Source of the DNA: Escherichia phage vB_Eco_F31
Strand: one strand, 5' to 3'
DNA length: 64,000 bases
Sequence record: OP870147.1
Below the pieces are notes generated by a model that saw nothing but the letters and a program-made list of their open reading frames with translations, ran no database searches and was not told the origin of the DNA. Below are positions 6,159 through 54,885 of the stretch, piece by piece. A program made the position numbers and the translations under genes. Position 1 is the stretch's first letter. Each line of letters opens with the position of its first letter.

Positions 6159-6160
6159 TA

Positions 6161-18860: not shown

Positions 18861-19109
18861 TTATTCTTTTTCGCGAATAATAATTACTTGTTGAGGCTGC
18901 TGAGCCGATTTCTTTTCGGCAACGATAGACCAAATTAAAGTTCCAATCCAACCAACCATCGTCCAGTTAAAGAGTAAAGATACAAAGAAGATTGCTGTTG
19001 TGCTTTTTGTGCCACGAATAAGTGCGATTACCCAAGGCAACATGTAAATGATGATTGAACCAATACCTGCGATTAAAACTGCTACTGAACTAGCTACGAA
19101 TAATTCCAT
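18861..19109 (-). CDS. small membrane protein (2 TM)
   Basis: 82 aa, two hydrophobic helices; 61.4 position. Confidence 0.45.
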   Translation of the reverse strand: MELFVASSVAVLIAGIGSIIIYMLPWVIALIRGTKSTTAIFFVSLLFNWTMVGWIGTLIWSIVAEKKSAQQPQQVIIIREKE

Positions 19110-22424: not shown

Positions 22425-23589
22425 CGAAATCTTCCATTTCGTCAAGGTCGTTTTCTATATCTGCTGCAGACGGAGCATCAGAAGTTTTAACCGGAACTTT
22501 AGTTGTTGCTTTGCAATTAATAAGGTCGTTAACAGCGTCATCAACTTCTTTAATAGAAGAGATAGCACCTAGTTTATATTTAGTTTCAATTGCATCTCGG
22601 AAAGGTTTGTGTTTAAACAACGGTCCCCAGAATTCTACACAATCAGTAGCTTTAGCACGCCATGATTTTTCTTCACGAATCATTTCGCCTGTTTCTTCGT
22701 CAAGGAATTCGCGAGCATACCACCCGGCTTTAGGCTTAACTACAAAACCAATTTCAGTTGCCATTTCTAACAAGCCACTGAACGGGTCGATACCACCATC
22801 GAAATTAACCGTGATCGGGAAAGTAGATTTCTCTTTAACCGTGCGAGATTTTTCTGCTTTCAACGTGAAGTCATAACCGGTCAATTCTGTACCTTCTTTA
22901 ACCTGACGTTTAGAGATAAAGAATACAGTGTTAGCAGAGTAAAGAATACCTGTACCACCACCCATAATCTCTTTAGGATATAGTCCGCCGATTTCCATTG
23001 CTGTATGGTTGATTGCAACACACGGAATATCTTTAATAGTCAGATAAGGAGTCACAATACGGAACAGAGATTTAAGTGCCTTAGCACGAGACATATCACC
23101 TACGACTTTCTCGTTCAATGCATCTTCGGTTTCTTTCTTAGATGCAGTATTACCGATTGAATCGATAAAGATAATAACTTTATCACCCCGTTCAATCGCG
23201 TCAAGCTGATTAGTCATATCAACTTTAAGTTGTTCGACGGATTGAATCGGAGTATGAACTACACGGTCTAAATCAACACCCATTGAACGAAAATAAGATT
23301 CTGAAGCACCGAATTCCGAATCATAGAACAAACAGATTGCATCTTTATATTTCTTCATATATGCTGCAACCATGGTCAGTCCAAACAATGTTTTAAAATG
23401 TTTAGAAGGTGCAGCAAAAATAGTCAAGCCTGATTGCAATCCTGCATTCAGAGCACCACCTAGTGCGATATTCAACATCGGAATACGAGTAGGGACTTCA
23501 TCACGATTATTAAACAGCTTAGACTTAGTCAAGTCTGCAGTCATTTTAGAAGTAGAAGCTTTAATCAGACGAGATTTTAAATCAGACAT
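22417..23589 (-). CDS. uvsX: UvsX recombinase (RecA-like)
   Basis: 390 aa; RecA fold motifs; acidic C-terminus; T4 UvsX is 391 aa. Confidence 0.85.
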   Translation of the reverse strand: MSDLKSRLIKASTSKMTADLTKSKLFNNRDEVPTRIPMLNIALGGALNAGLQSGLTIFAAPSKHFKTLFGLTMVAAYMKKYKDAICLFYDSEFGASESYFRSMGVDLDRVVHTPIQSVEQLKVDMTNQLDAIERGDKVIIFIDSIGNTASKKETEDALNEKVVGDMSRAKALKSLFRIVTPYLTIKDIPCVAINHTAMEIGGLYPKEIMGGGTGILYSANTVFFISKRQVKEGTELTGYDFTLKAEKSRTVKEKSTFPITVNFDGGIDPFSGLLEMATEIGFVVKPKAGWYAREFLDEETGEMIREEKSWRAKATDCVEFWGPLFKHKPFRDAIETKYKLGAISSIKEVDDAVNDLINCKATTKVPVKTSDAPSAADIENDLDEMEDFDE

Positions 23590-23687: not shown

Positions 23688-24236
23688 TTAACGAGCCCAT
23701 TTGATGATTTCTGTAATCAAACCATTACGTTCGCTTGCATTAAATCCTATAACTTTGTTAGCACCATCATGATTAAGTAATTGATACGTTTGGATTTTGT
23801 TATGAATTGCAAACTCTTCAAAATGTGAAATGACTGTATTAAAACCGAATGAAGACAAAGTAATAAGGTCGTCTTCAAAACTTTCAGTCATTTCGTTACG
23901 TGTTAAAATAATTGTGAACACATCATGGTTTTGGCAAAGACGAACATAATCCTGCTCATAAACATCAAGAACAGAGGCCGCATCTTGTCGAATACGTCCA
24001 TAAACCCAGTTACTAATATATCCACGGTCTAACAGATAAATCTTAGTAGGGTCTAAATAATTCAACATCGTTTCGAAACAACCAACTTCATTTCGAGACT
24101 TAACATCGAAACGTCCATCAACTGTTCGTTTAGGGAAATCAATCTTTACATATCTTTCACTAATTTCCATTATGTCATTAATGAAAGTTGTTTTACCGGC
24201 ATTATCCGGGCCATCTACTAAAATAATTTTAGCCAT
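23688..24236 (-). CDS. P-loop kinase (NMP-kinase-like fold), substrate unknown
   Basis: 182 aa; N-terminal Walker A ILVDGPDNAGKTT; occupies the T4 beta-gt locus. Confidence 0.55.
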   Translation of the reverse strand: MAKIILVDGPDNAGKTTFINDIMEISERYVKIDFPKRTVDGRFDVKSRNEVGCFETMLNYLDPTKIYLLDRGYISNWVYGRIRQDAASVLDVYEQDYVRLCQNHDVFTIILTRNEMTESFEDDLITLSSFGFNTVISHFEEFAIHNKIQTYQLLNHDGANKVIGFNASERNGLITEIIKWAR

Positions 24237-24237
24237 T

Positions 24238-25137
24238 TTATTCCTCGATTACGACATCTTCGTATTTAGGTATATTATACGGCGAAGAAATTAAAGCATT
24301 AAAGTAGATGAACTCACCAAGACCTGGATGGAATACTTCTTCAGGATTTTCGAAATATTGAATCTTCGGACGTCCTTTAAGAATTTGATAGTACTCAGTT
24401 TTAGTTGGTTTAAAAATTCTAATCAACGCTTCTTCAGGATACTTATTTCTGTCAAAGCTACTATTTGGATCAGTTATATAAAGCGGTTGACCTAATTGAA
24501 TTGCACATTCAACCACTTGTTCAAAACGATAGCACGGGTCACTAATTCGAAATGGATGAAAAATACCATCTAGATGAATAGGAGCCAAATCACCTACAAG
24601 ACGCTGCATGATGGAAGGACGTATAACTTTCTGAGTTACGATAATCTTATTACCATCTGCACCTGCGTTAACCAGCACTTCTTTTTGACGTTCATTCAAC
24701 ACAGTAGTTTGAAGTGAACGATTAACTGACAACATATCGGTTTTTAAGAATTCGTCAATATAAAAACGTGGTTTATTAGGGTCTGCCGTGATATTGAAAT
24801 TGAATTCTACATCAAAAGCGCCGTCATATCCAGTGATATCTGTTATTAGAAAATCACAATCATAATAAGCAATTAATGAATCAACCACAAATTCATTTTC
24901 AGACCAGAAATATTTACGAGTGTTATACGCGTTATCTTTATACCATAATGGAACAAACTTAAATTCCGGGAAAAGACGTTCACATTCTTTAATATCAGAT
25001 GCATTACGTGGATATGTAATCACATCACCTGGATTAGCACGGTGCAAATGAAGTTGGAAGTTGCCATCCTTAAGGATAGCATACTGTCCAGTTTCATAAG
25101 ACCGCATACTCAAAATAGGTACGCGGAAAATAGCCAT
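24238..25137 (-). CDS. hypothetical protein at the beta-glucosyltransferase syntenic position
   Basis: 299 aa; no motif I can assign; 1-nt gap to the kinase and 1-nt overlap with gene 42. Confidence 0.5.
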   Translation of the reverse strand: MAIFRVPILSMRSYETGQYAILKDGNFQLHLHRANPGDVITYPRNASDIKECERLFPEFKFVPLWYKDNAYNTRKYFWSENEFVVDSLIAYYDCDFLITDITGYDGAFDVEFNFNITADPNKPRFYIDEFLKTDMLSVNRSLQTTVLNERQKEVLVNAGADGNKIIVTQKVIRPSIMQRLVGDLAPIHLDGIFHPFRISDPCYRFEQVVECAIQLGQPLYITDPNSSFDRNKYPEEALIRIFKPTKTEYYQILKGRPKIQYFENPEEVFHPGLGEFIYFNALISSPYNIPKYEDVVIEE

Positions 25138-25853
25138 TAGTCAAGGAATCCTTTAACATAATCAAAATCACGTTCAAACACATGGGCACTTACCATGGTA
25201 TGAGTATAATCACCAACTTCTACACCGCATTCGTTAGCGATATAATGAAGTAATTTTCCTTGGAGATAAAAATCCAACTGCATAACAACAGCACAGTTCT
25301 GAGAACGCATATGACAGTGGGTATAAAGCTTACCATCACGAATATAATAAGTCACTGAGTCAGTACATGGATATTCAAGCGTTTCGTCTGAATCAAGCAA
25401 AGCCTGATCAGAACTTTCTAGAATTTGGAACACAACTCTTCGGGAGTTAGGCTTCTCTTTAAGTTCTTTTAGAAGAGCTGGTAATTGGGCCACAATGCGA
25501 GGACCGTAGAAAGTGTTGAAGTTTGCAGGCAAAGCGTCTGATTTAGGTTTAGAAATAAATTTAGCGACATTAGGATATGCCTTAAACGCTTCTTCTGCAT
25601 CAGTACCACCAGAAATCATAAACTTCCAGAAGTCTTCGGCATATTCATAAGAGATGCGGTTAATACGTGGGTCGGTCATTTTGAATGTTGACGGAGTGTC
25701 AACAACTACTGTCATAGACCCAATTTCATTACAACGTCCAATACGAGAATCAGTTACGAATTCCGGGTTTTCTAAAATTTCACGATTGACTGCTTTAAAT
25801 GCGGCTTGAAAATCTGCGGCTTTGATATATTTCATTGTGTTATGTTTTCCCAT
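25137..25853 (-). CDS. 42: dCMP hydroxymethylase (thymidylate-synthase fold), gp42-like
   Basis: 238 aa; YPCTDSVTYYI (catalytic Cys) and RSQN motifs parallel T4 gp42. Confidence 0.65.
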   Translation of the reverse strand: MGKHNTMKYIKAADFQAAFKAVNREILENPEFVTDSRIGRCNEIGSMTVVVDTPSTFKMTDPRINRISYEYAEDFWKFMISGGTDAEEAFKAYPNVAKFISKPKSDALPANFNTFYGPRIVAQLPALLKELKEKPNSRRVVFQILESSDQALLDSDETLEYPCTDSVTYYIRDGKLYTHCHMRSQNCAVVMQLDFYLQGKLLHYIANECGVEVGDYTHTMVSAHVFERDFDYVKGFLD

Positions 25854-25895: not shown

Positions 25896-26135
25896 TTATT
25901 TGAATTTCTTGGCAGTGTTGATATACCGTAAAGCTTCAGCATCGATACTTCCAAGAACACTATGAAGAAATGCATCAGCGTAGTATTCCAATTGAACAGG
26001 TTCTTTAATCACTTTAGCCGCTTTGGTTTCAAACAGGCCCATAAGGGCCTTTTTAAGAATTTGTTCGTTAGTGTTCAGTTTAATAGTCAAAATCTCTTCG
26101 TTAAGTTTATAATTAAAACTTTTTCTAGAAATCAT
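25896..26135 (-). CDS. hypothetical protein
   Basis: 79-aa ORF. Confidence 0.4.
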   Translation of the reverse strand: MISRKSFNYKLNEEILTIKLNTNEQILKKALMGLFETKAAKVIKEPVQLEYYADAFLHSVLGSIDAEALRYINTAKKFK

Positions 26136-27292
26136 TCCGGGTACCTCAAAGCGTCATCAGAGTTAGTTATATCAATAATAGATATAGAGTTTTCTGCTAA
26201 CCCGTTTTTAGATAATTGACGTTTATAATACCTTTCACAATATGTACACGTTGACCCACAGATTTCATTAGCACAATCAAAATCTGGATGTCTGAACCAC
26301 CTTTTTTCTAAAAAGCCATCTAACAAAGAGGTTTCAATATTTACTGTATGTGAAAACTCAGTTTCATTTTCAAGAGTGAAAATAGTCTCTAAAGGCTTCC
26401 ACAGTTCTAACAAATTACCTTCAAACTTTTCAGAAGCGTATGCTTCAAGAACTTTCAAAATGTAGTCTGTGCTACCTGTACGTCCTGAAACTTTGAATTG
26501 AGTGATACCGATATCATTATAAAGTTTCAAATCTTGAGGACGAACAAAACGAGTTCTCAACCAGTTAAATGGGTCTGTATCACGAGCTTTAATGCAGTGT
26601 TGCATTGGATACCCGTTTAAGGATTTAGCATCATCAGCTGTAACATCAGTACTATGGAAAATATAGCAAGAGTCACGATAGCTACAATGTGTTGTATACC
26701 CTTTACCAGCATTAGAACAGAACTCATTTACAAGAACTTCAAATATTATATTGTTCTTATTGCAAAACTCTGCTGCACGCTTCAGGAAAGAAACTGAACG
26801 GTTCTTATGAATTCCACAGCAGACCTTTTTGATATTGTATTGGTCATGTAAGTATTTGATTTGAGTTACAGCATCGACATGTAGAATTGTTGAAACTTCA
26901 ATCTCAATGTCTTTATTGACTTCACGAACAATTTCCATAACAACAGGGTTAGCGATAGTAATACGCCATACGCCTATTGACCAAAGATACTGAACATAAT
27001 CCTGAATAGCTTTCTTCTTCCACTCGACTAGTTCTCTTTTTGAACCAGGATTTATCGTGTTGAGTGTATAGTTAAAGCAAATACCTAATTCGTTACAACG
27101 TTTAACGTAATCTTCTAACATCTTTTTGTCAACGTCAGGAAGCCTAAAATCAGGTCTGGCTGCTACAAAAGCCATTTCTCTTGTAGAGCCGTATACTTCG
27201 TTTATCAAGCTATTAGGATAAGTTTTATTGAGCTCTACGATTTTATCAAGAAGAGCTAAATCAAAATTCGTTCCGATTTTAAAAGTATTCAT
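26132..27292 (-). CDS. Cys-rich putative Fe-S enzyme (possible U32-peptidase-like TIM-barrel family)
   Basis: 386 aa; central NEFCSNAGKGYTTHCSY and C-terminal CANEICGSTCTYC (CX3CX3CX2C) clusters. Confidence 0.4.
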   Translation of the reverse strand: MNTFKIGTNFDLALLDKIVELNKTYPNSLINEVYGSTREMAFVAARPDFRLPDVDKKMLEDYVKRCNELGICFNYTLNTINPGSKRELVEWKKKAIQDYVQYLWSIGVWRITIANPVVMEIVREVNKDIEIEVSTILHVDAVTQIKYLHDQYNIKKVCCGIHKNRSVSFLKRAAEFCNKNNIIFEVLVNEFCSNAGKGYTTHCSYRDSCYIFHSTDVTADDAKSLNGYPMQHCIKARDTDPFNWLRTRFVRPQDLKLYNDIGITQFKVSGRTGSTDYILKVLEAYASEKFEGNLLELWKPLETIFTLENETEFSHTVNIETSLLDGFLEKRWFRHPDFDCANEICGSTCTYCERYYKRQLSKNGLAENSISIIDITNSDDALRYPE

Positions 27293-27351
27293 TTTTTTTG
27301 CATCTCGCGTTAATTGATGCGATGGTTTTTTTGCAGGTCTTACTTAAATTA

Positions 27352-27738
27352 TTATAGGTTCGGTTTATATGATTTAAATGTTTCGAATTCGCCTTTATTC
27401 ATAAGAGCTTTGAATTCGTCAGGACGCATAGCTTTGTCGTCGATAATCCAATCATATACTGGTTTATGTGTTAGCAAATTATGGTACTTCAAGCCAATGT
27501 TTGCCAAGTTCTGAATCAGACTTGGGAGAATGTCAATTGCTATACGACCAGGACCTACTGACTTCATACCGCGCGCAGTGTAAAGCGTTATGGTATGCCC
27601 TGCATCATACAGGGCATTAATGGCAGACACCATTTCGACGTCCGGTTTGAAGTTCACGTAATCACGATTGTTATTCCACTCTGTTATACAATCATCGACA
27701 TCAAAACAAAGATTAAGCATGTTTTCTACACGATGCAT
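27352..27738 (-). CDS. HAD-superfamily phosphatase
   Basis: about 128 aa; HAD motif I FDVDDCIT near the N-terminus; start overlaps the upstream stop (TAATG). Confidence 0.55.
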   Translation of the reverse strand: MHRVENMLNLCFDVDDCITEWNNNRDYVNFKPDVEMVSAINALYDAGHTITLYTARGMKSVGPGRIAIDILPSLIQNLANIGLKYHNLLTHKPVYDWIIDDKAMRPDEFKALMNKGEFETFKSYKPNL

Positions 27739-29423
27739 TAGATTCGTTCCCATTGATGAGTGATATCGCCACCGATTGGACGATAGGAAACACCAGTTTC
27801 TTTATCAGTTAGTACCCATTTACCAGGATTTTTTGTAATCAGAGTAGCCGTTACAGGTTCTGCTACGTCATAACTAATAGAGCCGTCTTGAAGTACACGG
27901 CCCATGTTACGTAATTGCTTAGTCAGAAGTTCCATACCTTTATAATATGCGGCTACCGCTTTAAGTGGATTATTCTTGAAATAACCACCTAATGCAATCC
28001 AGATAATTGCCACTGCCAAATGATGATACTCGTTAAACGAACTCATCTTTCCATATTTGTAAACTAATGGATTGATGTTAATAGTCACATTACAAGTTGT
28101 TTCATCAATAGTAAACTGTCCCCAGGTCGGATTAGCGTTGAATTCATCATAACCTGAAACAGCGTAAAGCACTTTAGCTTCATCGTACAATTTTGGCCCG
28201 TAAATCTTAGTTTCACCAAAATATCCACGAGGGTCGATAAACTTGACTTCGCCATTATCAGTAATCATAGTATTACTGAAGTTCGGGTCACCATGAATAA
28301 CAGAGTACTGTCCCTGAGAACGGTTATGATAACGAATAAGGTGTTCTAAAGCTTGTTTCAGCATTGGCTTCAGACGTCCAATCTTAGTGTAGTTCACGTG
28401 TGTGATTTTACCAAATGAATCAATCAATGGTTGAATGCTTTCACAACGATCAATAACTTTCGTATAGAATTCTTTAGTGAAATCACGACGGACAGTTTCA
28501 GGACTTACAAAATAAGTGTCTGTGCTGAATTTCAGTGCATCTAAAATTGCATCAACAATTTGTGGACGAGCAAGACTTGATTTGGATTTAATATATTCAA
28601 ATGCCGGCTTACCTTTAATGCGTTCCATTTCAAAGTTATTTTCATTAACAGAAACTAACTGAGGAACTGAATCTGATTTCACTTTAAGATACCATGAAAT
28701 CTCATCTTTCTGAAGAGCTCGACCCTGTTCGGTTAATGCGAATTTAGTTACAGTTTCTTCACCAATTTCAACTGCATTAAAACTACGATTAAGTTCACGA
28801 ACTTCATGAGCTTTTTCAAGTTTAGGCATATCACCTAAATCAATTAGATTCATAAGCTCTGATTTATTGAATGCGCTGCCGTAAAGGAATTCTACGAAAT
28901 CACGTCCTTTGCAGTATTCATGAATTTCCTCATCAGTAGAACCCATGTAGAATTCCCAGTCTTTAAACTGATAAATTCCTACAACATTACCGCCTGTTTC
29001 ACCTACATTAGTGATATTTTCACCATCGAAATTATACCGACATTCATCACCCTTAACATAGATTGCGTTAACATTCCAAGACCATGAACCAAAATCGGGA
29101 ATAATATCACACCAGTTAACAATTACGTTATGGCCGTCTAAATCTTTGTGTAATTTAGCAAGAGCATAAGCAGAACCATACGCTTCATCAACTGTACGAA
29201 TAGTCACATTGAACCCTTCTTGCTCACAATAAGCTCGAACAGTTTCAGCAAATTTTGAATGAACTACTACAATAATTTCATCTGCGCCAAGGTCAGAATA
29301 AATTGTATACAAATTGCTCAGAATAGTGTCTTGTTTATAGTTAACAAGCACCTTAGGAATATGATGCGTTATTGGATACAAACGAGTTGCCAGTCCAGCA
29401 CCAAGAATAACAGCTTTTTTCAT
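27738..29423 (-). CDS. bifunctional sugar-1-phosphate nucleotidyltransferase (RmlA-like, N-terminal) / anomeric sugar kinase (ChoK/APH-like, C-terminal)
   Basis: 561 aa; N-terminal MKKAVILGAGLATRLYPIT (G-x-G-x-R, cf. RmlA ILAGGSGTRLYP); C-terminal VIHGDPNFSNTMI (Brenner HGDxxxxN) and FIDPRG. Confidence 0.6.
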   Translation of the reverse strand: MKKAVILGAGLATRLYPITHHIPKVLVNYKQDTILSNLYTIYSDLGADEIIVVVHSKFAETVRAYCEQEGFNVTIRTVDEAYGSAYALAKLHKDLDGHNVIVNWCDIIPDFGSWSWNVNAIYVKGDECRYNFDGENITNVGETGGNVVGIYQFKDWEFYMGSTDEEIHEYCKGRDFVEFLYGSAFNKSELMNLIDLGDMPKLEKAHEVRELNRSFNAVEIGEETVTKFALTEQGRALQKDEISWYLKVKSDSVPQLVSVNENNFEMERIKGKPAFEYIKSKSSLARPQIVDAILDALKFSTDTYFVSPETVRRDFTKEFYTKVIDRCESIQPLIDSFGKITHVNYTKIGRLKPMLKQALEHLIRYHNRSQGQYSVIHGDPNFSNTMITDNGEVKFIDPRGYFGETKIYGPKLYDEAKVLYAVSGYDEFNANPTWGQFTIDETTCNVTININPLVYKYGKMSSFNEYHHLAVAIIWIALGGYFKNNPLKAVAAYYKGMELLTKQLRNMGRVLQDGSISYDVAEPVTATLITKNPGKWVLTDKETGVSYRPIGGDITHQWERI

Positions 29424-29464
29424 GTTGAAGTCCTCATTGGTAAGTAGGAGTATTGTACACTATT

Positions 29465-29608
29465 CTAGTTAAAGCATTCATACTTTGCTTGTAGTCCAAT
29501 CATAATCCATCCAATTACAAGTGTTGGAATCATTACTGGAGCCGTTAAGCTCCAGTAGATAGTCATGACAAGCATCAATAGTAAAAGTCCTATTGTTATT
29601 GCTTTCAT
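29465..29608 (-). CDS. small hydrophobic peptide
   Basis: 47-aa ORF (MKAITIGLLLLMLVMTIYW...), ATGA-coupled to the SIS gene stop. Confidence 0.3.
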   Translation of the reverse strand: MKAITIGLLLLMLVMTIYWSLTAPVMIPTLVIGWIMIGLQAKYECFN

Positions 29609-30240
29609 TGTTCGCCTCGTAACATGGCACCTAGTGCACCGCCTGGATGGAACTTAAGGAAATCATTAGAGGTAAATCCACGTTCAGACGAAAGGTTGAT
29701 AGCGAACGTATCGATAAGCGCTAACAACAATGTAGTAGACATTGTCGGAGCTAAAGAGTTCTCGTCAACTTCTACCGCGATACCGGTACAGAACGTATAA
29801 TCAAAAAGAGCTTCGTATTCTTGTGGAATGTCAGGGTTACAATGTAACAGAATCTGTTTAACCTGAGGACGAATCATACGAAGATGTTTAGCAACACCTA
29901 TCATTTCTTCAGTCTTACCAGAACGACTGATGTGAACTAATACATCATTAGGTGCAATAAATCCTGCGTCACCATGAGAATAATGCCCAGTGTTCAAATA
30001 CATGCTAGGAATACCTAGTGAAGCAAAAGTCTCGGAAGCTTTAGTTGCGATATTAGCATTCTTACCAACACCTGTAATAATTACCCGGCTTTCATAATTA
30101 CTAAGTCCAGGGCGTCGAAGAGTTTCTAGAATAGCATTATATCGGGCAGGGTTTTGACTAATTACTTTAGCCATAGTGGCAAGAGATGAAGCTTGTTTTA
30201 CGATTGCGTCAATAGCGATAGTAATAGGAGTAGTTTTCAT
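29605..30240 (-). CDS. SIS-domain sugar-phosphate isomerase, KdsD/GutQ (arabinose-5-phosphate isomerase)-like
   Basis: 211 aa; ITGVGKNANIATKASETFASLGIPSMYLNTGHYSHGDAGF parallels the KdsD SIS motif [38 protein letters not shown]; no CBS domains. Confidence 0.65.
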   Translation of the reverse strand: MKTTPITIAIDAIVKQASSLATMAKVISQNPARYNAILETLRRPGLSNYESRVIITGVGKNANIATKASETFASLGIPSMYLNTGHYSHGDAGFIAPNDVLVHISRSGKTEEMIGVAKHLRMIRPQVKQILLHCNPDIPQEYEALFDYTFCTGIAVEVDENSLAPTMSTTLLLALIDTFAINLSSERGFTSNDFLKFHPGGALGAMLRGEQ

Positions 30241-30280: not shown

Positions 30281-32992
30281 TCAAAAATCAAACATATCGA
30301 ACAGAGATGCTTTCTTCTCGTAATCGAGTTTAGCTGCTGATGTGAATCCTTCAAGTGGTTTAATAAATGTCTTCTCAAGGAGAACAGTGTAGTCCATCCA
30401 ATGAAGTACATCATCTTTGATTAAATCAGTGATTTCCGTACCAGAAGGCCATGCGATACATTTATCACCGAACGGGTTTCCATCACGTAAAGGCAGAACG
30501 TATACCTTTTCGCCTTCTACAACTTGTGGAGCATCAATATTACCTTTGATAGCTCGGTTATATGTCAGAATTCCACGAATATGGAACGGGCATTTAGGTC
30601 CTGGATATCCACCTACATCATATTTAGCAATGTTATTCGCAGAAGATACCGACGCGATGCTAATATAATTCAATTGACGGAATTCTTTTTCAAACTCTTT
30701 AAAATATTCTTGTAATGATTCTTCACCTTCTTGAAGCATACGACGAATACATTCTTTAAGAGCTTTCTGTACTGCTTTAGGGGTCGAAGATTTCTGAGTT
30801 TCTAGACCCATGATTTTGAGTTTAGGCTCAGCGTAACGAGTACCTTCCATATCCCACACGTTTAATGCATAACGTTTCTTACCAGTCCAGAATCCACCAA
30901 TACCTTTAGAACCGAGCGGAGGACCCGCGATAGCTTCTCGGTCCATGAACATTAAGTGTTGTTTATTGTTCATGTATTCACACATTTCACGGAAACCTTT
31001 ATCAATAGCTGGTTCCATACGTTCACGTGCAAACTTATCTAAGAAGTCTACCCAATGGTTGGTATCACGGAATTTAGATTCACCAACCTTATCAATAATT
31101 TTATCTGCAGATACGTAAATGGAGTCTGTATCACCATATAGAACGAAAGCTTCACCTTCTGTACCACAAACTTCATTCAGATATTCATTAACTTTACGTT
31201 CAATCCACTGTAAAGCCATTTGCCCGAATGTTGTGATTGCAGTAGCATTACGCAAATCATAATAACGGAACCAAACGTTGCCAAGTGCACCATAAAGTGA
31301 GTTGATGAGCAATTTACGGTTAATTTGTGCAGTCATACCTGCAACTTCAGTACGTTGAGCTCTAAACAACATTTCGTTAAGAGATTTAGCAGACAACTTT
31401 TTAATCTTTTCTTTAATCTCATCACTGAAGTCGAAACGATAATCAACATCTAATGGTTCGTCAACAGAAAGATTAGGATTATGCAATGCCTCTTTAATTA
31501 TTTCACCATTACGTTGAGCTGCAAGCATGTAACCTTTATGTTCTTTACGTTGATTAAAGACTTTAGTGATTTCAGTTGGAACTACACCATCACGGTCTTT
31601 ATAATACATCATGCCGTTAGGAGAACAACTGTACACATCTGAAGGACGTTCAGCGATTGCGTTAATATAATCATGCAATGGAGCTACTTTAAACGTTCCT
31701 GCTATTGTTTCTGGGCTAATATTCACTTGGCGAATAATACTTGGATACAGAGATGTAAGGTCGAAACTCATTACATATTTGTATCGATTTGGAATAGGTT
31801 CCTTAACAAAAGCGCCAGGATAAGGTTGAACCGGGTGAGAACGACCTTGTGGAATCACCTTGTTCTGCTCTTTAAGGCTATTAAAAATAATAGCATCCCA
31901 TGTTTTAATTGGGCTAAACACAGATTGAATCTGTATCTTAGCATAATAACCCATGTCCAAACTCAAGTTGATGAACTGACGCTTAGCATCAATTTGCAAT
32001 ACACGATACACGTCGATAATGTTATAAGAAATATATCGTTGGTGATTGCTTTCACGAAGCTTAGAAATAGGGCCGTCATATTTCAGTTTACCAACGTTCA
32101 ATTCAAATTCTGAAATGTAATCCAGAGAATACGACGGTTGATTGGTAAAAGAGAATTTTTTGTAAAGGTCAATGTAATCAAGAACAGAGATACCGAACAA
32201 TGTAATGATTTCACGAGAACCATACATGTTTTCGATAACTTTAACACGAGTTTTACGATGTGGTGATAAACGTTTCGCAGTAGATTCGCCAAAAATATTC
32301 TTGATTCGGTTATACACATACGGAATATCAAATGACTCAACGTTCCATCCAGTCAAAATGACAGGAGTTTTCTGTTGCCAGAAGTTGAGATATTCCATCA
32401 ATAATTCTTTTTCATTATCAAACGGCATATAAACGATTTTGTCGATAATTTCGGATGGAACTTCATCACCACCTTGTTCTTGAAGCTTAGCAGCGATTTC
32501 AATAGACCATTCTTCCACATTACCATATGGAGAATTCAATAGATCAAATACGTAGAACCTGTCGTCAATTGAGTCATAATGGGTGATAGCATCAATCGGA
32601 TGTTTTGCTTGTGACGGCTCAGGGAACCCGTCCGGAGATGTTACTTCGATGTCGAAGTTAGCCACACGAATTTTTGTATGGTCGTATTTGATTTCATAGT
32701 TATAAGTGTCAGACAAATACGCCAATTTGAAATCGTCCATGCCAAGTGCTTCAAGCCCGATATCTTCCATGCGTTTAATCCATTGGGAGGCATCACGCAT
32801 ATTAGCGAACAACTTACGAGTACACGGTTTACCGTAGATATCGAAATATTTCGTAGCCTGACTTTCTGGACAATGAGCAAACAGTGATGGTTTATATTCT
32901 ACTTCACGAGTACGTTCACGGCCATTAGAATCGATGTAACGTTCAAAAATTGAATCACCAATCTGTTCAACCGTTAAGTAAAATTCTTTCAT
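30281..32992 (-). CDS. 43: DNA polymerase (family B), gp43
   Basis: 903 aa; exonuclease and polymerase motifs (FDIE, YGDTDS); N-terminus matches the RB69 gp43 sequence as I remember it. Confidence 0.95.
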   Translation of the reverse strand: MKEFYLTVEQIGDSIFERYIDSNGRERTREVEYKPSLFAHCPESQATKYFDIYGKPCTRKLFANMRDASQWIKRMEDIGLEALGMDDFKLAYLSDTYNYEIKYDHTKIRVANFDIEVTSPDGFPEPSQAKHPIDAITHYDSIDDRFYVFDLLNSPYGNVEEWSIEIAAKLQEQGGDEVPSEIIDKIVYMPFDNEKELLMEYLNFWQQKTPVILTGWNVESFDIPYVYNRIKNIFGESTAKRLSPHRKTRVKVIENMYGSREIITLFGISVLDYIDLYKKFSFTNQPSYSLDYISEFELNVGKLKYDGPISKLRESNHQRYISYNIIDVYRVLQIDAKRQFINLSLDMGYYAKIQIQSVFSPIKTWDAIIFNSLKEQNKVIPQGRSHPVQPYPGAFVKEPIPNRYKYVMSFDLTSLYPSIIRQVNISPETIAGTFKVAPLHDYINAIAERPSDVYSCSPNGMMYYKDRDGVVPTEITKVFNQRKEHKGYMLAAQRNGEIIKEALHNPNLSVDEPLDVDYRFDFSDEIKEKIKKLSAKSLNEMLFRAQRTEVAGMTAQINRKLLINSLYGALGNVWFRYYDLRNATAITTFGQMALQWIERKVNEYLNEVCGTEGEAFVLYGDTDSIYVSADKIIDKVGESKFRDTNHWVDFLDKFARERMEPAIDKGFREMCEYMNNKQHLMFMDREAIAGPPLGSKGIGGFWTGKKRYALNVWDMEGTRYAEPKLKIMGLETQKSSTPKAVQKALKECIRRMLQEGEESLQEYFKEFEKEFRQLNYISIASVSSANNIAKYDVGGYPGPKCPFHIRGILTYNRAIKGNIDAPQVVEGEKVYVLPLRDGNPFGDKCIAWPSGTEITDLIKDDVLHWMDYTVLLEKTFIKPLEGFTSAAKLDYEKKASLFDMFDF

Positions 32993-38382: not shown

Positions 38383-38617
38383 CCTTGATACATGCTTCAG
38401 CCATTTTAAGAATAGAACCAGGAGTATCGTTGTCCATTATATTAAAGCTAAATTCAATAGCCCAGTCAGTGCAGACATGAACTGCTTTAACTTCATTGCC
38501 TTCAACGCGTAATGGCTCAATCCAATACTTGATAGTGTTCTCGAATCCATCGTCATCTTTAACGTCCATTTCAACTTCAAGCCTGAGACCAGCATTGTTA
38601 AATTCATCTAAAGTCAT
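38360..38617 (-). CDS. small hypothetical protein
   Basis: 85-aa acidic ORF. Confidence 0.4.
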   Translation of the reverse strand: MTLDEFNNAGLRLEVEMDVKDDDGFENTIKYWIEPLRVEGNEVKAVHVCTDWAIEFSFNIMDNDTPGSILKMAEACIKDAYNDED

Positions 38618-39633
38618 TGTGTTGCCTCAATATAAAGTTCGTTGGAATATTTGACCAGCGCTTCTCTGTCTTCGTCTGAGATATCTGGAATAGCGTCAAT
38701 ATATTCTTTAATGATATCTTGAAGTGATTTAATCTCGATTTCCTGGTCGTCATCAGATTCAACACTGTTATCAACTTTAGAAACCATACGAAGAGAGTGA
38801 ACTACTTTTTCAAGTTCAGATTCAAACTTAGTCAACTCAGAATCGATTTCTGATACTATAACACGTACGGCTAGATTAGTATAATCAGAATAATTGATTT
38901 TGCCTTTAAACGGATAAGTGATTCGTCGATGCCATGTTGTTTCATTAGGAATAAATTCCATACGTTCAACATCAGTGTCAAATACCCAGAATCCTCGAGG
39001 GTCGTTCTCATCGCCTGCAGTAAGGGTCCATGGTGTCCCAATATATTTGACGTTAGCAGCTTCAGAGATTGTGTGGAAGTGGCCGGACCAGACTTGTTTA
39101 TAAGTCTTTAAGAAATCAGGTTCAAGCCCATGAGACTTCATTCCTTTATAGAAATAAAAGCCGTTCAGTTCCCAGTGCCCAACACAATACGCTGCAGAAG
39201 AAGTCTTGATGTGCTCTAAGATTTCACCTGTATTTTCTTCACACATCCATGGAACGATATCAATCAGACATCCGTCAAAATCTACAGTAGTCGGATGCTC
39301 GTAAATAGTAAAGTTTTCAAATTGAGTTAACAATTCAGAAACAGTGTTAGGTGTTATTGTATTCTTAAACGCCATGTCATGGTTTCCTATCGTGACATGA
39401 ACGTGAATACCTGCTTTAGAAATCATATCAACGATTTCACGATTGAATTCCATTGTACGATGTGTTATTGCTTTACGAACGTCGAACCAATCACCGTACT
39501 GAATCCAAGTTTTAATCCCGTGTTTCTTAGAGTATTCAATTGCTTGTTGAATACCATCACGTTGAATATCTTGAACCCATGGGTCGTCTTGTTTGACTCC
39601 GATATGGAAGTCGCCTAAGTGCAAAATTTTCAT
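38614..39633 (-). CDS. 47: recombination endonuclease subunit gp47 (Mre11/SbcD-like phosphoesterase)
   Basis: 339 aa; N-terminal MKILHLGDFHIG metallophosphatase motif. Confidence 0.85.
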   Translation of the reverse strand: MKILHLGDFHIGVKQDDPWVQDIQRDGIQQAIEYSKKHGIKTWIQYGDWFDVRKAITHRTMEFNREIVDMISKAGIHVHVTIGNHDMAFKNTITPNTVSELLTQFENFTIYEHPTTVDFDGCLIDIVPWMCEENTGEILEHIKTSSAAYCVGHWELNGFYFYKGMKSHGLEPDFLKTYKQVWSGHFHTISEAANVKYIGTPWTLTAGDENDPRGFWVFDTDVERMEFIPNETTWHRRITYPFKGKINYSDYTNLAVRVIVSEIDSELTKFESELEKVVHSLRMVSKVDNSVESDDDQEIEIKSLQDIIKEYIDAIPDISDEDREALVKYSNELYIEATQ

Positions 39634-39649
39634 ATTATTTCCTCATTAG

Positions 39650-39682
39650 TTAATTCATTCTATCATCCGTTTATAAAGCAAA
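39650..39682 (-). promoter_or_regulatory. MotA-box middle-type promoter upstream of gene 47
   Basis: Minus strand TTGCTTTAT - 11 nt - TAGAAT; shares CGGATGATAGAAT with the gene 39 promoter. Confidence 0.45.
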
Positions 39683-39704
39683 AAAGGAACTCCGAAGAGT
39701 TCCT
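39675..39704 (-). terminator. rho-independent terminator with UUCG loop upstream of gene 47
   Basis: AGGAACTC-TTCG-GAGTTCCT followed by TTTTTTGCTTT on the minus strand. Confidence 0.65.
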
Positions 39705-39876
39705 ATCCACATAGTACACCGTACAGAGGCTCATTTGAACTTTTAAATCGAATGGGCTTGTACGTAATAGTTCCTTCGGCTTTAGCTTTATCATAAGACT
39801 CTTTAAAACGTCTCATTCTTTCTGCTTTGCCTTTACGGATTTTATCGAAATTTTCAGAAGTCGGGATGTTCGTCAT
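39703..39876 (-). CDS. small basic hypothetical protein
   Basis: 57-aa ORF by manual translation with GAGGTG RBS; lies where T4 has alpha-gt. Confidence 0.3.
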   Translation of the reverse strand: MTNIPTSENFDKIRKGKAERMRRFKESYDKAKAEGTITYKPIRFKSSNEPLYGVLCG

Positions 39877-39915
39877 GCATAAGCACCTCTCAGAAAATAC
39901 CTAAATCGATTTCTC

Positions 39916-40137
39916 TCATCGTTTCCACCATTTCTTAACTTGAAATGAATCGACCCACACGAGTTGTTTTGGGTCTGCCTTTACAATAGGCGGACAAATT
40001 TCTGTAATAGAACCGTCGTGATATTCCTTTTCAGAAATTTTAACACAAAGAGGACCTCCCAATTTAAGGGTGAACCCTGCGTTCAGCTTCAGACGTTTAA
40101 ACTTTGTTTGAACTAGCGCCATTAATGATGTCCTCAA
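39916..40137 (-). CDS. small hypothetical protein
   Basis: 73-aa ORF. Confidence 0.35.
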   Translation of the reverse strand: MRTSLMALVQTKFKRLKLNAGFTLKLGGPLCVKISEKEYHDGSITEICPPIVKADPKQLVWVDSFQVKKWWKR

Positions 40138-40420
40138 TAGCCTGACGAGTAGTAACCCACTGGATTTTAATTAACTTGTCATTGTATGGTTGTCGTAGAA
40201 TATCCCGAGATTTCTTAATAGCATATTCGTAAGCTTCGAAGTTGTTTTGAATTGCTGCTTCTTGAGCATGAGCATAAAGACGGTTTAGTTCAAAACGATT
40301 CTTTTTAAGAATCTTTTCGGATTTTTTACGTGCTTCAGCTTCATTTTTCTTTTGGATTTCTTGTAGCATTTTAGCTACTGCATCTTCTGCTTCTTTATTT
40401 TCAATAATCTCGGTAGTCAT
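40097..40420 (-). CDS. hypothetical protein
   Basis: 107-aa ORF, helical/charged. Confidence 0.4.
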   Translation of the reverse strand: MTTEIIENKEAEDAVAKMLQEIQKKNEAEARKKSEKILKKNRFELNRLYAHAQEAAIQNNFEAYEYAIKKSRDILRQPYNDKLIKIQWVTTRQAIEDIINGASSNKV

Positions 40421-40421
40421 A

Positions 40422-40631
40422 TTATCTCATTAAATTAAAATAAAAACGTCCATCCTCTTCAATACAGAACTCATATTCAACTGGAGTCCCGTTTATCGAA
40501 AATGACACGTCATGTGGGTTCAAAGGGTCGATGTCAAAATTAATTTTAAATTCACGACCCAACAGTTTTACCAAATAAGGGATTGCTTCGTCAAAAGGTT
40601 CTTCTAAGTAGTTAGAGATGTCAATTGTCAT
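40422..40631 (-). CDS. small hypothetical protein
   Basis: about 69 aa from MTIDISNY; start chosen just downstream of the gp55 stop. Confidence 0.35.
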
Positions 40632-41178
40632 CCTCATATAAAAAATCCAAACTAGGCGAATCGCTAACAACTTCCTTCTTTTCAGCCCCAGGAGCTTTAT
40701 AAGCGGATTCTTCATAATGCGTCATTTTATCGTAGATGTCTTGAATAAACGTTTCATCTACCAACGCTACCATATCATCGTCATGACTGTCGTAGACATT
40801 ATGAACGAAGTAACTATATTTCTTTGCAACTTCCTTACGTTCTTTTTTGATACGTTGGACAAAAGCATTAAAACAAGCTCGAGTTATGTATGCATGTGGG
40901 TTATTGTACTTAGTTTCGTCGAAATTATGAAGTCCCTTAATAGAGGCTTCAATCCCATCTGCAATCATCTCCTGCTTCCAAGACTGGGTATATCCTGAAA
41001 AGTTGAAACGTTTGGACAGGCCTTCGGCGATAAGCATAATTGCTAAACCGATGGTATCATTCTGACGAATAATTTTGTTTGGGTCTTTATTATTTAAGAG
41101 CTCCTTTTTCCACTCGATTATAGCAGCGAGAAGCTCTTTGTTATTCACATAGTTATTTTTAGGTTTTTGTTCAGTCAT
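40621..41178 (-). CDS. 55: late-transcription sigma factor gp55
   Basis: 185 aa from [17 protein letters not shown], near-colinear with T4 gp55 as recalled. Confidence 0.85.
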
Positions 41179-41204
41179 AAGTACCTCTTGGCTCAATTCA
41201 TAGG

Positions 41205-41245
41205 TCTATTATATCATAATATTTAGAGACCTATCTTAAAGCACG
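41205..41245 (-). promoter_or_regulatory. promoter upstream of gene 55 (MotA-box-like TGCTTTAAG plus TATTAT/TATAAT)
   Basis: Minus strand cgTGCTTTAAG - 13 nt - TATTAT, then TATAATAGACCTAT; inverted repeat TAGGTCT/AGACCTA. Confidence 0.4.
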
Positions 41246-41250
41246 AGATA

Positions 41251-41520
41251 CTATCGGAGCAAACAATAAGCCTGAAACACTTTTTCCATTAAACGTTTGA
41301 ACTCATGGATATCGATATAAAGCTCAGTAAGACCGGCATTATAAAGAAAATCTAAAAAGTTCTCATGTGTTTCGTTATAGTCGCCTTCGTTTAATTGAGA
41401 TACATGAGTTTCCCAAAAACCAACACCTTTAACGAATGGAAAATACGTGACTTTCATGTATTCGTCAACATAAAATTCGCCCAGCTTTTCTTCAGTTATA
41501 CTGATTCGAGTTAATTTCAT
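41251..41520 (-). CDS. hypothetical protein
   Basis: 89-aa ORF. Confidence 0.4.
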   Translation of the reverse strand: MKLTRISITEEKLGEFYVDEYMKVTYFPFVKGVGFWETHVSQLNEGDYNETHENFLDFLYNAGLTELYIDIHEFKRLMEKVFQAYCLLR

Positions 41521-53866: not shown

Positions 53867-54868
53867 TTATTTCAGTAAAGTTACTTCAGAGATTTCTTCC
53901 CAACCATCTTTATCAGTTGAAATAAAATCTGCTACATAAAGAGCCGTACGTAATGATACATTGCGAAGACGAGATACATTAGCCTTCATCCAGGACAATG
54001 CTTTGTACGTTTCTGCATCCGTCAGGCCACGTTTCTGCATCATGTCAGTAGATAATATTACATCTTCAACTCGAACCATAATCTCTTCATTAGAGTGTAC
54101 TCCAAGGTCGAGATACACTGAACGAGATACTAAAGCTTGAAGGTGTGGAGCAAGTTTCGAACCCCGTTCTAACTCTTTATCGATATCAACGTTTGTAATG
54201 AAAACGATAGTACCTTCAAACTCAAATTCTTTATCAATACCCTTATCCTCGAGATAAGATGACGCAGTGCTCCAACAAACTTTGCGTTTATCGCCGGTAT
54301 CTAATGCTGCTTTAAGAAGGTTCAAGATGTCCATATCTGAGAATACGTCAACGTCGTCGATTAAGAGAACGCTGTCTGCGTCACGGTTGAGCCAAAGTTG
54401 TTCGTAAAGGCCAATACCAGAGATTTTACCATTAATGCTTTTGTATTTGATGAAACCATTATCATTAGCGTTATTAAGTGCTTTATCCAGAGAATACGTC
54501 TTACCAATACCGGCTGCACCTGAAATAATGAGTGAACGAATTTTGCCATCGATAATGCCATTCGTCATCATGTTCATTACTTTAAAGCGTTTGTTGATAC
54601 GAGTTTTCATATTTTCAGTGCTTTCAACAACTGCAACTGGCGATGTCTCAACTCCTTCCATTACGATGTCTGATTTGAAGACCCATACTCCACGTTCAGA
54701 GCCATCAATCATAACGAAAATTTTACCATCACCTAAGTGGGAACATTCAGGATTAAGCTTTGCCGGGAACCAGGTCTTTGTGGCAACATAAGAACCAGAG
54801 ATTTCGTTATTACGATAGATACCTTTTTTGATTTGAACGTTGAACATTTTATTCTCCAATTTACTCAT
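53867..54868 (-). CDS. P-loop ATPase (AAA-like)
   Basis: 333 aa; Walker A ISGAAGIGKTY; Walker B VLLIDDVD. Confidence 0.5.
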   Translation of the reverse strand: MSKLENKMFNVQIKKGIYRNNEISGSYVATKTWFPAKLNPECSHLGDGKIFVMIDGSERGVWVFKSDIVMEGVETSPVAVVESTENMKTRINKRFKVMNMMTNGIIDGKIRSLIISGAAGIGKTYSLDKALNNANDNGFIKYKSINGKISGIGLYEQLWLNRDADSVLLIDDVDVFSDMDILNLLKAALDTGDKRKVCWSTASSYLEDKGIDKEFEFEGTIVFITNVDIDKELERGSKLAPHLQALVSRSVYLDLGVHSNEEIMVRVEDVILSTDMMQKRGLTDAETYKALSWMKANVSRLRNVSLRTALYVADFISTDKDGWEEISEVTLLK

Positions 54869-54885
54869 TTCGTTTCGATAGGTCT

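Follow-up and report, generated by a model that had tools for sequence, protein, structure and literature searches.

No gene for alpha-glucosyltransferase (a-gt) is present between genes 47 and 55 in the 64-kb stretch of phage F31 DNA analysed here (the window), and this absence is confirmed as a real, ordinary and already known property of RB69-like phages. With high probability, F31 is a Mosigvirus with arabinosyl-5-hydroxycytosine chemistry that has no hydroxymethylcytosine (hmC) acceptor, and its a-gt slot is correspondingly empty.

Judging from its sequence, the window is the first part of the genome of a Mosigvirus, i.e. of an RB69-like T-even phage. Mosigvirus records are 97-98 % identical to positions 1-25000 and 99.3 % identical at the DNA level to positions 38600-41300; over the latter positions, identity is 98.8-98.9 % for Bas46 and Bas47. 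The rest of the genome (~105 kb beyond the window) was represented by the colinear Mosigvirus MM02, a 97-99 % identical relative that is 98-99 % identical to the last 5 kb of the window; the composite genome searched below consists of the window and MM02 60001-169201 (109 kb).

The interval between gene 47 and gene 55

Genes 47 and 55 both lie on the minus strand and are separated by 987 bp (39634-40620), between the start of gene 47 at 39633 and the gene 55 stop codon at 40621-40623. The interval and its boundaries are made up as follows (aa identities in brackets).

38614-39633, minus strand: gene 47 (SbcD/Mre11-like recombination nuclease subunit), 339-aa ORF, Pfam Metallophos; downstream boundary of the interval (RB69 99.7 %, T4 76 %)
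39634-39702, minus strand: 69-nt spacer, a terminator-hairpin/middle-promoter-like cassette (PmSL type), read directly from the sequence
39703-39876, minus strand: a-gt.2 orthologue, 57 aa, Pfam DUF5486 (E 4.5e-28), phrog_2140 (RB69 94.7 %, T4 76 %)
39916-40122, minus strand: a-gt.3 orthologue, 68 aa (73 aa from an upstream TTG), phrog_1648, no Pfam match (RB69 100 %, T4 71 %)
40097-40420, minus strand: a-gt.4 orthologue, 107 aa, Pfam DUF2654 (E 1e-27), phrog_951 (RB69 100 %, T4 60 %)
40422-40637, minus strand: a-gt.5 orthologue, 69-71 aa, Pfam DUF5491 (E 1.4e-12), phrog_1169 (RB69 100 %, T4 48 %)
40621-41178, minus strand: gene 55 (late-transcription sigma factor), bounding the interval upstream (RB69 99.5 %, T4 89 %)

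Thus, the interval contains the orthologues of a-gt.2, a-gt.3, a-gt.4 and a-gt.5 and the hairpin/promoter-like spacer only. The initial annotation, which had described four small ORFs of 57-107 aa in place of a-gt, was exact in this respect, coordinates included. The first 11-17 nt of a-gt.5 lie within the 3' end of gene 55. The DUF5491 match covers residues 29-94 of a longer, 97-aa ORF extending to 40715; this reading was rejected, as it overlaps gene 55 and its start is not the conserved one. Similarly, the conserved start of gene 55 is the ATG at 41178, while the mechanically called ORF starts at a TTG at 41196. A tRNA scan of 39634-40620 detected no tRNA, and an Rfam scan of the interval gave a sub-threshold chance match only (SCARNA18, 18.6 bits versus a gathering score of 40, E 0.48). 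For the functions of a-gt.2 to a-gt.5, a literature search gave only one mention, in a comparative-genomics study from 2006.

Alignment with RB69 (Mosigvirus RB69, NC_004928) and T4 (Tequatrovirus) bears out the empty slot. In RB69, the gene order 47/a-gt.2-a-gt.5/55 is identical, the 987-bp interval is 98.2 % identical, gap-free and colinear, and the four small proteins share 95-100 % identity. In T4, the locus reads 47/47.1/a-gt/mobB/a-gt.2-a-gt.5/55; the flanking genes and the four small genes are alike in order and orientation, and a-gt.2 is followed by a hairpin and GCTTTATA cassette, as in the window. However, the 69 nt of the window correspond to 2283 nt in T4, which comprise mobB, a-gt (encoding 400 aa), 47.1 and a second hairpin/promoter cassette; in the window, a single cassette takes the place of 47.1, a-gt and mobB.

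This cassette starts with a hairpin, AGGAACTC-TTCG-GAGTTCCT, at 39704-39685, which overlaps the a-gt.2 stop codon; its stem has 8 bp, its loop is UUCG, and a T6 run follows. A Mot-box-like TGCTTTA (39680-39674) and, after an 11-nt spacing, a -10-like TAGAAT (39662-39657) follow, and GAGG at 39644-39641 precedes the gene 47 ATG at 39633. Thus, 39634-39702 has the stem-loop, the TGCTT Mot-box and the suitably spaced -10-like box by which PmSL elements are recognized. The spacer was scored as terminator-like, and the hairpin is present in the MFE and centroid folds alike; the RNA fold of the whole spacer is no better than that of shuffles (z = -1.1), with only the local 8-bp hairpin standing out. 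The strict pattern of hairpin, Mot-box and -10 box occurs in three copies in the window and is not a large repeat family. Moreover, the spacer can be aligned to the one cassette present in Dhakavirus WG01 as well as to that which follows a-gt.2 in T4. Its motifs suggest that it may act as a promoter leading straight into gene 47.

PmSL/PeSL cassettes of T4-like phages have been described as shuffling sites (Arbiol et al. 2010, PMC2839356; Comeau et al. 2014, PMC4122927). As in those cases, a stem-loop terminator is followed here by a promoter or promoter-like element, the cassette lies at a boundary where related phages differ in gene content, and a direct repeat flanks the variable gene. Unlike those cases, the locus lies within a conserved replication/recombination block rather than in a classical hyperplastic region, and the promoter and recombination activities of its cassette are putative.

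Searches for glucosyltransferases

The window has no counterpart of 47.1, a-gt or mobB (tblastn E of at least 0.23), in agreement with the absence of a-gt claimed in the initial annotation. The lowest E values against the window were 2.5 (T4 a-gt), 0.31 (47.1) and 0.23 (mobB). The window encodes no ~400-aa protein of the AGT family (PF11440), a profile on which T4 a-gt scored 862 bits as a positive control, and there is no gene between a-gt.2 and 47, the site of a-gt in T4, Jiaodavirus and Roskildevirus, where the spacing is just 69 nt. T4 beta-gt (PF09198) had no match at E <= 1 in the composite of window and MM02, and the beta-alpha-gt of RB14 (TAGT type; the T2/T6 enzyme) gave a best E of 0.6, which does not indicate homology.

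An a-gt homologue elsewhere in the genome was likewise not detected in the window or the MM02 proxy by tblastn or HMM. In the composite genome, a-gt gave a best tblastn E of 0.043 over 69 aa, and a profile HMM of a-gt sequences from three genera (T4/Jiaodavirus/Roskildevirus) gave a best E of 0.17 against 1586 ORF segments of >= 40 aa. The former match is to a 200-aa protein at MM02 71830-72432; it covers a-gt residues 18-86, and a pairwise BLASTP aligned residues 24-86 with 19/63 identities. It is highly improbable that this protein, or one of the a-gt.2-5 proteins, is a diverged equivalent of a-gt. The match spans 16 % of a-gt, is interrupted by a gap of 9 residues and does not reach the catalytic region, and the protein is grouped in a PHROG that is unrelated and of unknown function, has no Pfam AGT match at E <= 1 and is not among the matches of the a-gt HMM; with no AGT domain, no HMM match and another PHROG, this candidate is effectively refuted as a chance match. 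The a-gt.2-5 ORFs encode 57-107 aa, compared with the ~300-400 aa required for a GT-B enzyme. Moreover, according to the published chemistry, the sugar on RB69-type DNA is arabinose and not glucose.

No a-gt remnant was detected in empty-slot genomes, whose small ORFs (STML-198 o5, TG1 o4 and others) gave a best E of 0.037 over 26 aa, dismissed as noise. hhalign of the a-gt profile against both arabinosyltransferases described below gave no signal, the three-sequence profile being too shallow for fold-level relatedness. The published record agrees with these searches: RB69 has no homologue of a-gt, b-gt or ba-gt (PMC6024577, by BlastP; PMC13326640), and that RB69-like phages lack glucosyltransferases is already known (Thomas 2018; Lee 2026).

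Arabinosylation genes and base chemistry

The whole RB69 arabinosylation gene set lies within the window, at 90-99.7 % aa identity and with the expected domains. The roles of the first arabinosyltransferase and the donor block are those given in PMC13326640.

2527-3627, minus strand: second arabinosyltransferase (RB69 ORF003c/gp3 orthologue), 366 aa, 98.9 % aa identity to RB69 p003
23688-24236: nucleotide kinase, just upstream of the donor block
24238-25137, minus strand: putative first DNA arabinosyltransferase (RB69 gp46:47 orthologue), 299 aa, phrog_3891
25137-25853, minus strand: thymidylate-synthase-family 5-hydroxy-dCMP synthase (RB69 gp48 orthologue; T4 gene 42 counterpart), Pfam Thymidylat_synt
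26132-30240, minus strand: predicted arabinose-donor block, 96.7-99.7 % aa identity to RB69 p050-p055, with the following four genes
26132-27292, minus strand: U32-like protein, Pfam Peptidase_U32
27352-27753, minus strand: HAD phosphatase
27738-29423, minus strand: bifunctional nucleotidyltransferase/kinase, one 561-aa ORF, Pfam NTP_transferase and kinase-like
29605-30240, minus strand: arabinose-5-phosphate isomerase, Pfam SIS

The product of 24238-25137 is 99 % identical to RB69 p046 and p047 and has no Pfam or PDB sequence match. Its gene is syntenic with the beta-gt slot of T4, beside the gene-42 homologue, and is not in the a-gt slot; T4 has beta-gt whereas the window does not. The product of 2527-3627 is nearly identical to PDB 9IQZ/9IR0 (E 1e-248), which is named 'glycosyltransferase subfamily 4-like N-terminal domain-containing protein'. 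The RB69 record differs from the window in that p046/p047 and p052/p053 are split where the window has single ORFs of 299 and 561 aa, and these splits have been attributed to sequencing errors in RB69 (PMC13326640); the orthologue of p049 is only 90 % identical. Other arabinosyl-5-hydroxycytosine systems (RB69, DLP3, HY126, Bas46/Bas47 and NP) have the same gene set and order between uvsX and gene 43 as the window and share with it the rIIA-proximal second transferase, with no substantive difference.

The product of 25137-25853 is 98.7 % identical to RB69 gp48 over 238 aa and just 25 % identical to T4 gp42, which makes hmC. RB69 gp48 has been shown to produce 5-hydroxy-dCMP and not 5-hydroxymethyl-dCMP (PMC13326640), and the DNA of RB69 and of Mosigvirus NP contains mono- and di-arabinosyl-5-hydroxycytosine (PMC13326640; PMC13390438). 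With enzymes ~98 % identical to those studied in these phages, the DNA of F31 probably contains arabinosyl-5-hydroxycytosine as well. The initial annotation had regarded the interval as consistent with a replacement of glucosylation by pentosylation. This holds in that a complete arabinose system is present, but the change is not a swap of sugars on the same base: according to literature from 2026, the modified base is 5-hydroxycytosine and not hydroxymethylcytosine (PMC13326640).

In the mechanism that we propose, the gene-42-like enzyme would produce 5-hydroxy-dCMP for incorporation into DNA, with no glucosyl-hydroxymethylcytosine being formed, and the two GT-B-type arabinosyltransferases (24238-25137 and 2527-3627) would add one or two arabinoses from a donor supplied by the adjoining isomerase, kinase/uridylyltransferase and phosphatase genes. 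Since the RB69 gp48 orthologue would make 5-hydroxy-dCMP, the acceptor of a-gt is expected to be missing from this phage; without a 5-hydroxymethyl acceptor, a-gt would have nothing to act on, and the facultative a-gt slot would be left empty. The link between the two absences is a correlation, and Gelderlandvirus, with hmC-type chemistry yet an empty a-gt slot, counts against the absence of the acceptor being the cause.

Gain or loss of a-gt

We surveyed the slot in 10 phages from 9 genera. It is filled in T4 (Tequatrovirus), Jiaodavirus Wolf_ER13 and KPV15, and Roskildevirus Cronus. It is empty in five genera of the 5-hydroxycytosine (5hoC) type, i.e. Mosigvirus, Dhakavirus, Tegunavirus, Kanagawavirus and the outgroup Lazarusvirus, and, with Gelderlandvirus, in 6/9 genera altogether. 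Three slot states had been predicted beforehand, and all three predictions held. Collection-wide, 657 phage records have a-gt and 773 have T4-type gp42, and the a-gt/gp42 counts coincide by host name (348/348 for Escherichia, 136/137 for Klebsiella, 62/62 for Shigella and 35/35 for Enterobacteria); ~150 Mosigvirus records carry the 5hodCMP-synthase type instead of T4-type gp42. A homing endonuclease gene sometimes lies beside a-gt (mobB in T4, HNH in KPV15).

The slot has a conserved arrangement of 55, a-gt.5, a-gt.4, a-gt.3 and a-gt.2, then one cassette, then gene 47, and in phages with a-gt this gene is a self-contained unit between two hairpin cassettes. The two bracketing cassettes make recombination between them a likely route for removal or insertion of a-gt. 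On a neighbour-joining tree of gp47 and gp55, with weak bootstraps of 51-82 %, the slot states correspond to three gains or to one gain and three losses, and gain and loss thus appear about equally parsimonious. With the slot also empty in most genera, the 'loss' of glucosylation spoken of in the initial annotation is an assumption.

We give roughly even chances to a lineage-specific deletion, in which a-gt lay between a-gt.2 and 47 in the ancestor common to Tequatrovirus and Mosigvirus, and Mosigvirus lost it together with 47.1 after gaining the arabinosyl-5hoC module. In support, a-gt occupies exactly one and the same slot in three divergent genera, and its divergence (67/57/59 %) tracks that of gp47 (70/66/69 %) and gp55 (78/73/71 %), which is what vertical descent predicts. 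Moreover, Mosigvirus is the sister of T4 on gp47 and gp55 (82 % bootstrap), and 47.1 is common to T4 and Dhakavirus WG01 (78 % aa identity) but missing in the window, which implies that this junction underwent at least one deletion in the lineage of Mosigvirus; the direct-repeat cassettes on either side offer a route. However, neither the 69-nt spacer nor the small ORFs of any empty-slot genome contain an a-gt remnant, the outgroup is among the empty genera, parsimony does not favour loss, and the 5hoC synthase is itself old, with ~80 % identity in Dhaka-, Teguna- and Kanagawavirus and ~70 % in Acinetobacter phages.

A plausible reading, to which we assign somewhat under an even chance, is that a-gt was never present: the empty slot and 5hoC would be ancestral, and Tequatrovirus, Jiaodavirus and Roskildevirus would have taken up an a-gt cassette, with the hairpin/promoter as the site of recombination. 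An empty slot and the 5hoC type are seen in the outgroup Lazarusvirus and in most genera, and a-gt is self-contained between hairpin cassettes with homing endonucleases alongside in T4 and KPV15. A cassette-bracketed gene with a homing endonuclease neighbour is typical of mobile or optional DNA. The documented role of PmSL/PeSL cassettes as shuffling sites (PMC4122927, PMC2839356) points the same way. However, three insertions at one site are required, the two-gene tree is weakly supported, and between genera, a-gt is at least as divergent as the core genes, giving no sign of recent transfer.

More tentatively, and as a case that is less likely than not, a-gt could be a plug-in between direct-repeat hairpin/Mot-box cassettes that is cleanly excised and inserted when T-even relatives recombine in co-infection; 39634-39702 would then be an empty attachment scar, and glucosyl-hmC and arabinosyl-5hoC would be swapped between lineages as modules rather than inherited vertically.

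Our analysis adds modestly to what is known, namely the slot-occupancy table for ten phages from nine genera and the repeated hairpin cassettes bracketing a-gt. The sugar on the cytosine of T-even phages decides attack by type IV restriction enzymes, GmrSD/BrxU, CRISPR-Cas and the Brig1 glycosylase, the last of which is specific for alpha-glucosyl-hmC, and also decides whether phages can exchange genes. A missing a-gt serves as a quick genomic marker, placing a T4-like phage in the arabinosyl-5-hydroxycytosine and not the glucosyl-hmC group, and is of use when phages are selected for therapy cocktails or engineering.

Genes in the interval between 47 and 55

In a sequence search, 153 records matched window positions 38600-41300 at 90% identity or more; of the best 40, all RB69-like Mosigvirus, Escherichia phage vB_EcoM_G53 shares 99.3% identity and the remaining 39 share 98.7-99.3%. 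Positions 1-25000 share 97-98% identity with Mosigvirus genomes, and the colinear complete Mosigvirus genome MM02 has its position 1 at window position 8. These matches identify the window as the rIIA-proximal 64 kb of a T-even phage of the RB69 type, and the locus is a typical RB69/Mosigvirus one.

Genes 47 to 55 in the window
38614-39633, minus: gene 47 (339 aa, Metallophos domain)
39703-39876, minus: a-gt.2 (57 aa, DUF5486; 76% identity to T4 a-gt.2)
39916-40122, minus: a-gt.3 (68 aa, no Pfam family; 71% to T4 a-gt.3)
40097-40420, minus: a-gt.4 (107 aa, DUF2654; 60% to T4 a-gt.4)
40422-40637, minus: a-gt.5 (71 aa, DUF5491; 48% to T4 a-gt.5)
40621-41178, minus: gene 55 (conserved ATG at 41178; mechanical ORF opens at TTG 41196)

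The initial annotation held that the interval lacks the alpha-glucosyltransferase gene (a-gt) and contains four small ORFs of 57-107 aa. Both statements were borne out: the 987 bp contain only a-gt.2 to a-gt.5 (57, 68, 107 and 71 aa), with 69 nt between a-gt.2 and gene 47. The interval aligns colinearly and without gaps with RB69 39992-40978 (98.2% identity, 987 bp in both); by contrast, T4 has 2283 nt between 47 and a-gt.2 that encode 47.1, the 400-aa a-gt product and mobB, an HNH homing endonuclease, none with a counterpart here.

Near-identical records annotate the four ORFs as a-gt.2 to a-gt.5, each belongs to a PHROG of unknown function, and the four families keep this order in Dhakavirus, Jiaodavirus, Roskildevirus, Gelderlandvirus, Tegunavirus and Kanagawavirus. 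Judged from sequence, they are real conserved genes and not chance ORFs. The a-gt.5 start overlaps the gene 55 end by 11-17 nt (40621-40637), and a-gt.3 and a-gt.4 share 26 nt; mechanical ORF calling makes a-gt.5 (97 aa), a-gt.3 (73 aa) and gene 55 (from TTG 41196) too long. A tRNA scan of the 987-bp interval detected none, and the sole Rfam match there, SCARNA18, was sub-threshold (E 0.48) and attributed to chance.

Searches for glucosyltransferases

In tblastn searches of the whole 64-kb window, T4 a-gt, mobB and 47.1 found no homologue (best E 2.5, 0.23 and 0.31, respectively). We also searched a composite genome of the window and MM02 60001-169201, MM02 being 98-99% identical where the two overlap. 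Here, tblastn with T4 a-gt, beta-gt, mobB and 47.1 detected nothing beyond one marginal a-gt match (E 0.043, 69 aa) on a 200-aa hypothetical MM02 protein, which was dismissed as chance because the protein lacks a Pfam AGT match, did not appear in the profile search and falls in an unrelated PHROG. This protein (phrog_2607) is encoded outside the window at genome positions 71830-72432 (11830-12432 of the MM02 segment L010), and the pairwise match covers residues 24-86 in the N-terminal part of T4 a-gt.

An a-gt HMM built from T4, Jiaodavirus and Roskildevirus and applied, with filters switched off, to every ORF segment of 40 aa or longer in the composite genome (1586 in total) detected no homologue (best E 0.17). 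The top, non-significant match is a 338-aa ORF at 53870-54883 on the minus strand (phrog_1250, function unknown) with weak similarity to clamp-loader/AAA-type proteins (E 2.8e-4). The T2-type beta-alpha-glucosyltransferase (RB14 query) was not found in the composite genome (best E 0.6). Thus, neither tblastn nor the HMM placed an a-gt homologue elsewhere in the window plus MM02 60001-169201. RB69 was reported to have no BlastP homologue of a-gt, beta-gt or beta-alpha-gt (Thomas et al. 2018, PMC6024577), with which Lee et al. is cited as agreeing; that the RB69/Mosigvirus group lacks T-even glucosyltransferases and has an arabinosylation system is already published (2018, 2025, 2026).

The arabinosylation system and the two gene-42 types

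The window carries the arabinosylation genes in RB69 order between uvsX (22417-23589) and gene 43 (30281-32992), together with an ORF003c-type transferase; all their proteins are 90-99.7% identical to RB69 proteins.

Arabinosylation genes in the window
2527-3627: ORF003c-type transferase
23688-24236: nucleotide kinase
24238-25137, minus: putative arabinosyltransferase, 299 aa
25137-25853, minus: thymidylate-synthase-family enzyme (gene-42 counterpart)
25896-26135, minus: small ORF, orthologue of RB69 p049, function unknown
26132-27292: U32-like protein
27352-27753: HAD phosphatase
27738-29423, minus: nucleotidyltransferase/kinase fusion, 561 aa
29605-30240: SIS-domain arabinose-5-phosphate isomerase

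The ORF003c orthologue matches in sequence the protein crystallised as PDB 9IQZ/9IR0, a GT4-like glycosyltransferase. The p049 orthologue is the least conserved of the cluster (90% versus 97-99.7% for its neighbours). The 299-aa and 561-aa genes are intact here and split in the RB69 reference (p046/p047 and p052/p053), which lends independent support to the published view that the splits are sequencing errors.

The gene-42 counterpart is 25% identical to T4 gp42, while the adjacent UvsX is 68% and neighbouring core genes are 68-89% identical to T4. Enzymes of its type are ~80% identical in Dhaka-, Teguna- and Kanagawavirus and ~70% in Acinetobacter phages, pointing to two old alternative gene-42 types segregating among T4-like genera. 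The low identity fits a 2026 study in which RB69 gp48 proved to be a flavin-dependent 5-hydroxy-dCMP synthase and the DNA of RB69 to contain mono- and di-arabinosyl-5-hydroxycytosine, formerly assumed to be arabinosyl-hydroxymethylcytosine (PMC13326640). The 5-hydroxycytosine (5hoC) chemistry was confirmed in Mosigvirus NP (PMC13390438); the genetics of Bas46 are credited to Mahler et al. 2025 in PMC13216743. The pentosylation system proposed as a replacement for glucosylation is therefore real and complete, but the exchange is not of the sugar alone: the base changes too, and because 5hoC DNA has no 5-hydroxymethyl group, a-gt would be without an acceptor.

By position, the first arabinosyltransferase, adjacent to the gene-42 homologue, takes the slot of T4 beta-gt; the slot of a-gt is a different site. 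Remote homology between a-gt and the two arabinosyltransferases gave no signal with shallow profiles; their common GT-B fold is taken from the literature alone. An imm homologue (superinfection immunity; 18864-19109, minus, 64% identity to T4 Imm) adjoins sp/61.x, whereas T4 imm lies beside gene 42. The gene-42 neighbourhood is rearranged relative to T4.

In the phage collection, a-gt occurs in 657 records and T4-type gp42 in 773, with nearly matching numbers when records are grouped by host name (Escherichia 348/348, Klebsiella 136/137, Shigella 62/62 and Enterobacteria 35/35); ~150 Mosigvirus records belong instead to the set with the other gene-42 type. Across ten phages of nine genera, the 55-to-47 slot is filled in Tequatrovirus (T4), Jiaodavirus (Wolf_ER13, KPV15) and Roskildevirus (Cronus), and empty in Mosigvirus, Dhakavirus (WG01), Tegunavirus (TG1), Kanagawavirus (PEi20), Gelderlandvirus (STML-198) and the outgroup Lazarusvirus (Konradin). 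Predicted beforehand from gene-42 type, the slot state was correct in 3/3 phages.

Origin of the empty slot and its hairpin/promoter-like cassette

The absence of a-gt stands, and loss is one of two readings of it: on the slot table and the tree, deletion in the Mosigvirus lineage and absence ever since the split from a 5hoC-type ancestor are about equally likely. Inter-genus identities of a-gt (67/57/59%) track those of gp47 (70/66/69%) and gp55 (78/73/71%), suggesting long vertical residence. Moreover, T4 and WG01 both encode 47.1, a predicted membrane protein of 46 aa (78% aa identity between the two), which is absent from the window, and therefore at least one deletion occurred at this junction in the Mosigvirus lineage. 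However, the conservation of the 5hoC synthase makes that module equally old; on a neighbour-joining tree of gp47+gp55 (506 columns; Mosigvirus with T4 at 82% bootstrap), the competing histories are three gains or one gain and three losses; and no a-gt remnant was found by tblastn of the window or among the small ORFs of empty-slot genomes.

In the window, the leader of gene 47 with its ribosome-binding site is homologous to the 47.1 leader of WG01 (39634-39702 versus 6010-6208 of the WG01 segment L005, and T4), as though a deletion from one start codon to the next had taken out the 47.1 ORF. Klebsiella phage KPV15 has an HNH homing endonuclease between a-gt and 47 (L015 6576-7286), whereas in T4 mobB is found on the opposite side of a-gt; Yersinia phage TG1 has a GIY-YIG homing endonuclease and a duplicated gene-47 fragment at the gene-47 boundary (L007 6100-6881). 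The gene-47 junction is repeatedly targeted by mobile endonucleases.

On the minus strand, the 69-nt spacer reads a-gt.2 stop, hairpin, T6, TGCTTTA, 11 nt, TAGAAT, GAGG and the gene 47 ATG, the architecture of PmSL (stem-loop, Mot-box and -10), described as a shuffling site in T4-like genomes (Comeau et al. 2014, PMC4122927).

Predicted elements of the spacer
39704-39685, minus: hairpin, 8 bp, UUCG loop
39680-39674, minus: TGCTTTA (Mot-box-like)
39662-39657, minus: TAGAAT (-10-like)

In T4, this hairpin + GCTTTATA element occurs twice, after a-gt.2 and after a-gt, bracketing mobB and a-gt. Wolf_ER13 has this element on each side of a-gt, and Cronus a full cassette upstream and a hairpin with a T-run downstream. 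WG01, without a-gt, has one copy that matches the window copy base for base through the ribosome-binding site, which serves 47.1 in WG01 and 47 in the window. With two copies bracketing a-gt and a single copy where it is missing, recombination between flanking cassettes would cleanly delete or insert a-gt and leave one copy, exactly the observed layout, as inferred from anatomy.

The strict hairpin, Mot-box and -10 motif has only three copies in the window. The copy upstream of gene 39 (~5490-5550, minus) reads AAGGGCTTCGGCCCTT TTT GCTTTAGATTTCGGATGATAGAAT and has the 13-mer CGGATGATAGAAT in common with the gene 47 copy; the gene directly after 39 is that of the ORF003c-type arabinosyltransferase. 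The a-gt gene may be a plug-in cassette exchanged via flanking hairpin/promoter-like repeats, which, if true, would modestly extend the published PeSL/PmSL concept of stem-loop and promoter cassettes in T4-like phages.
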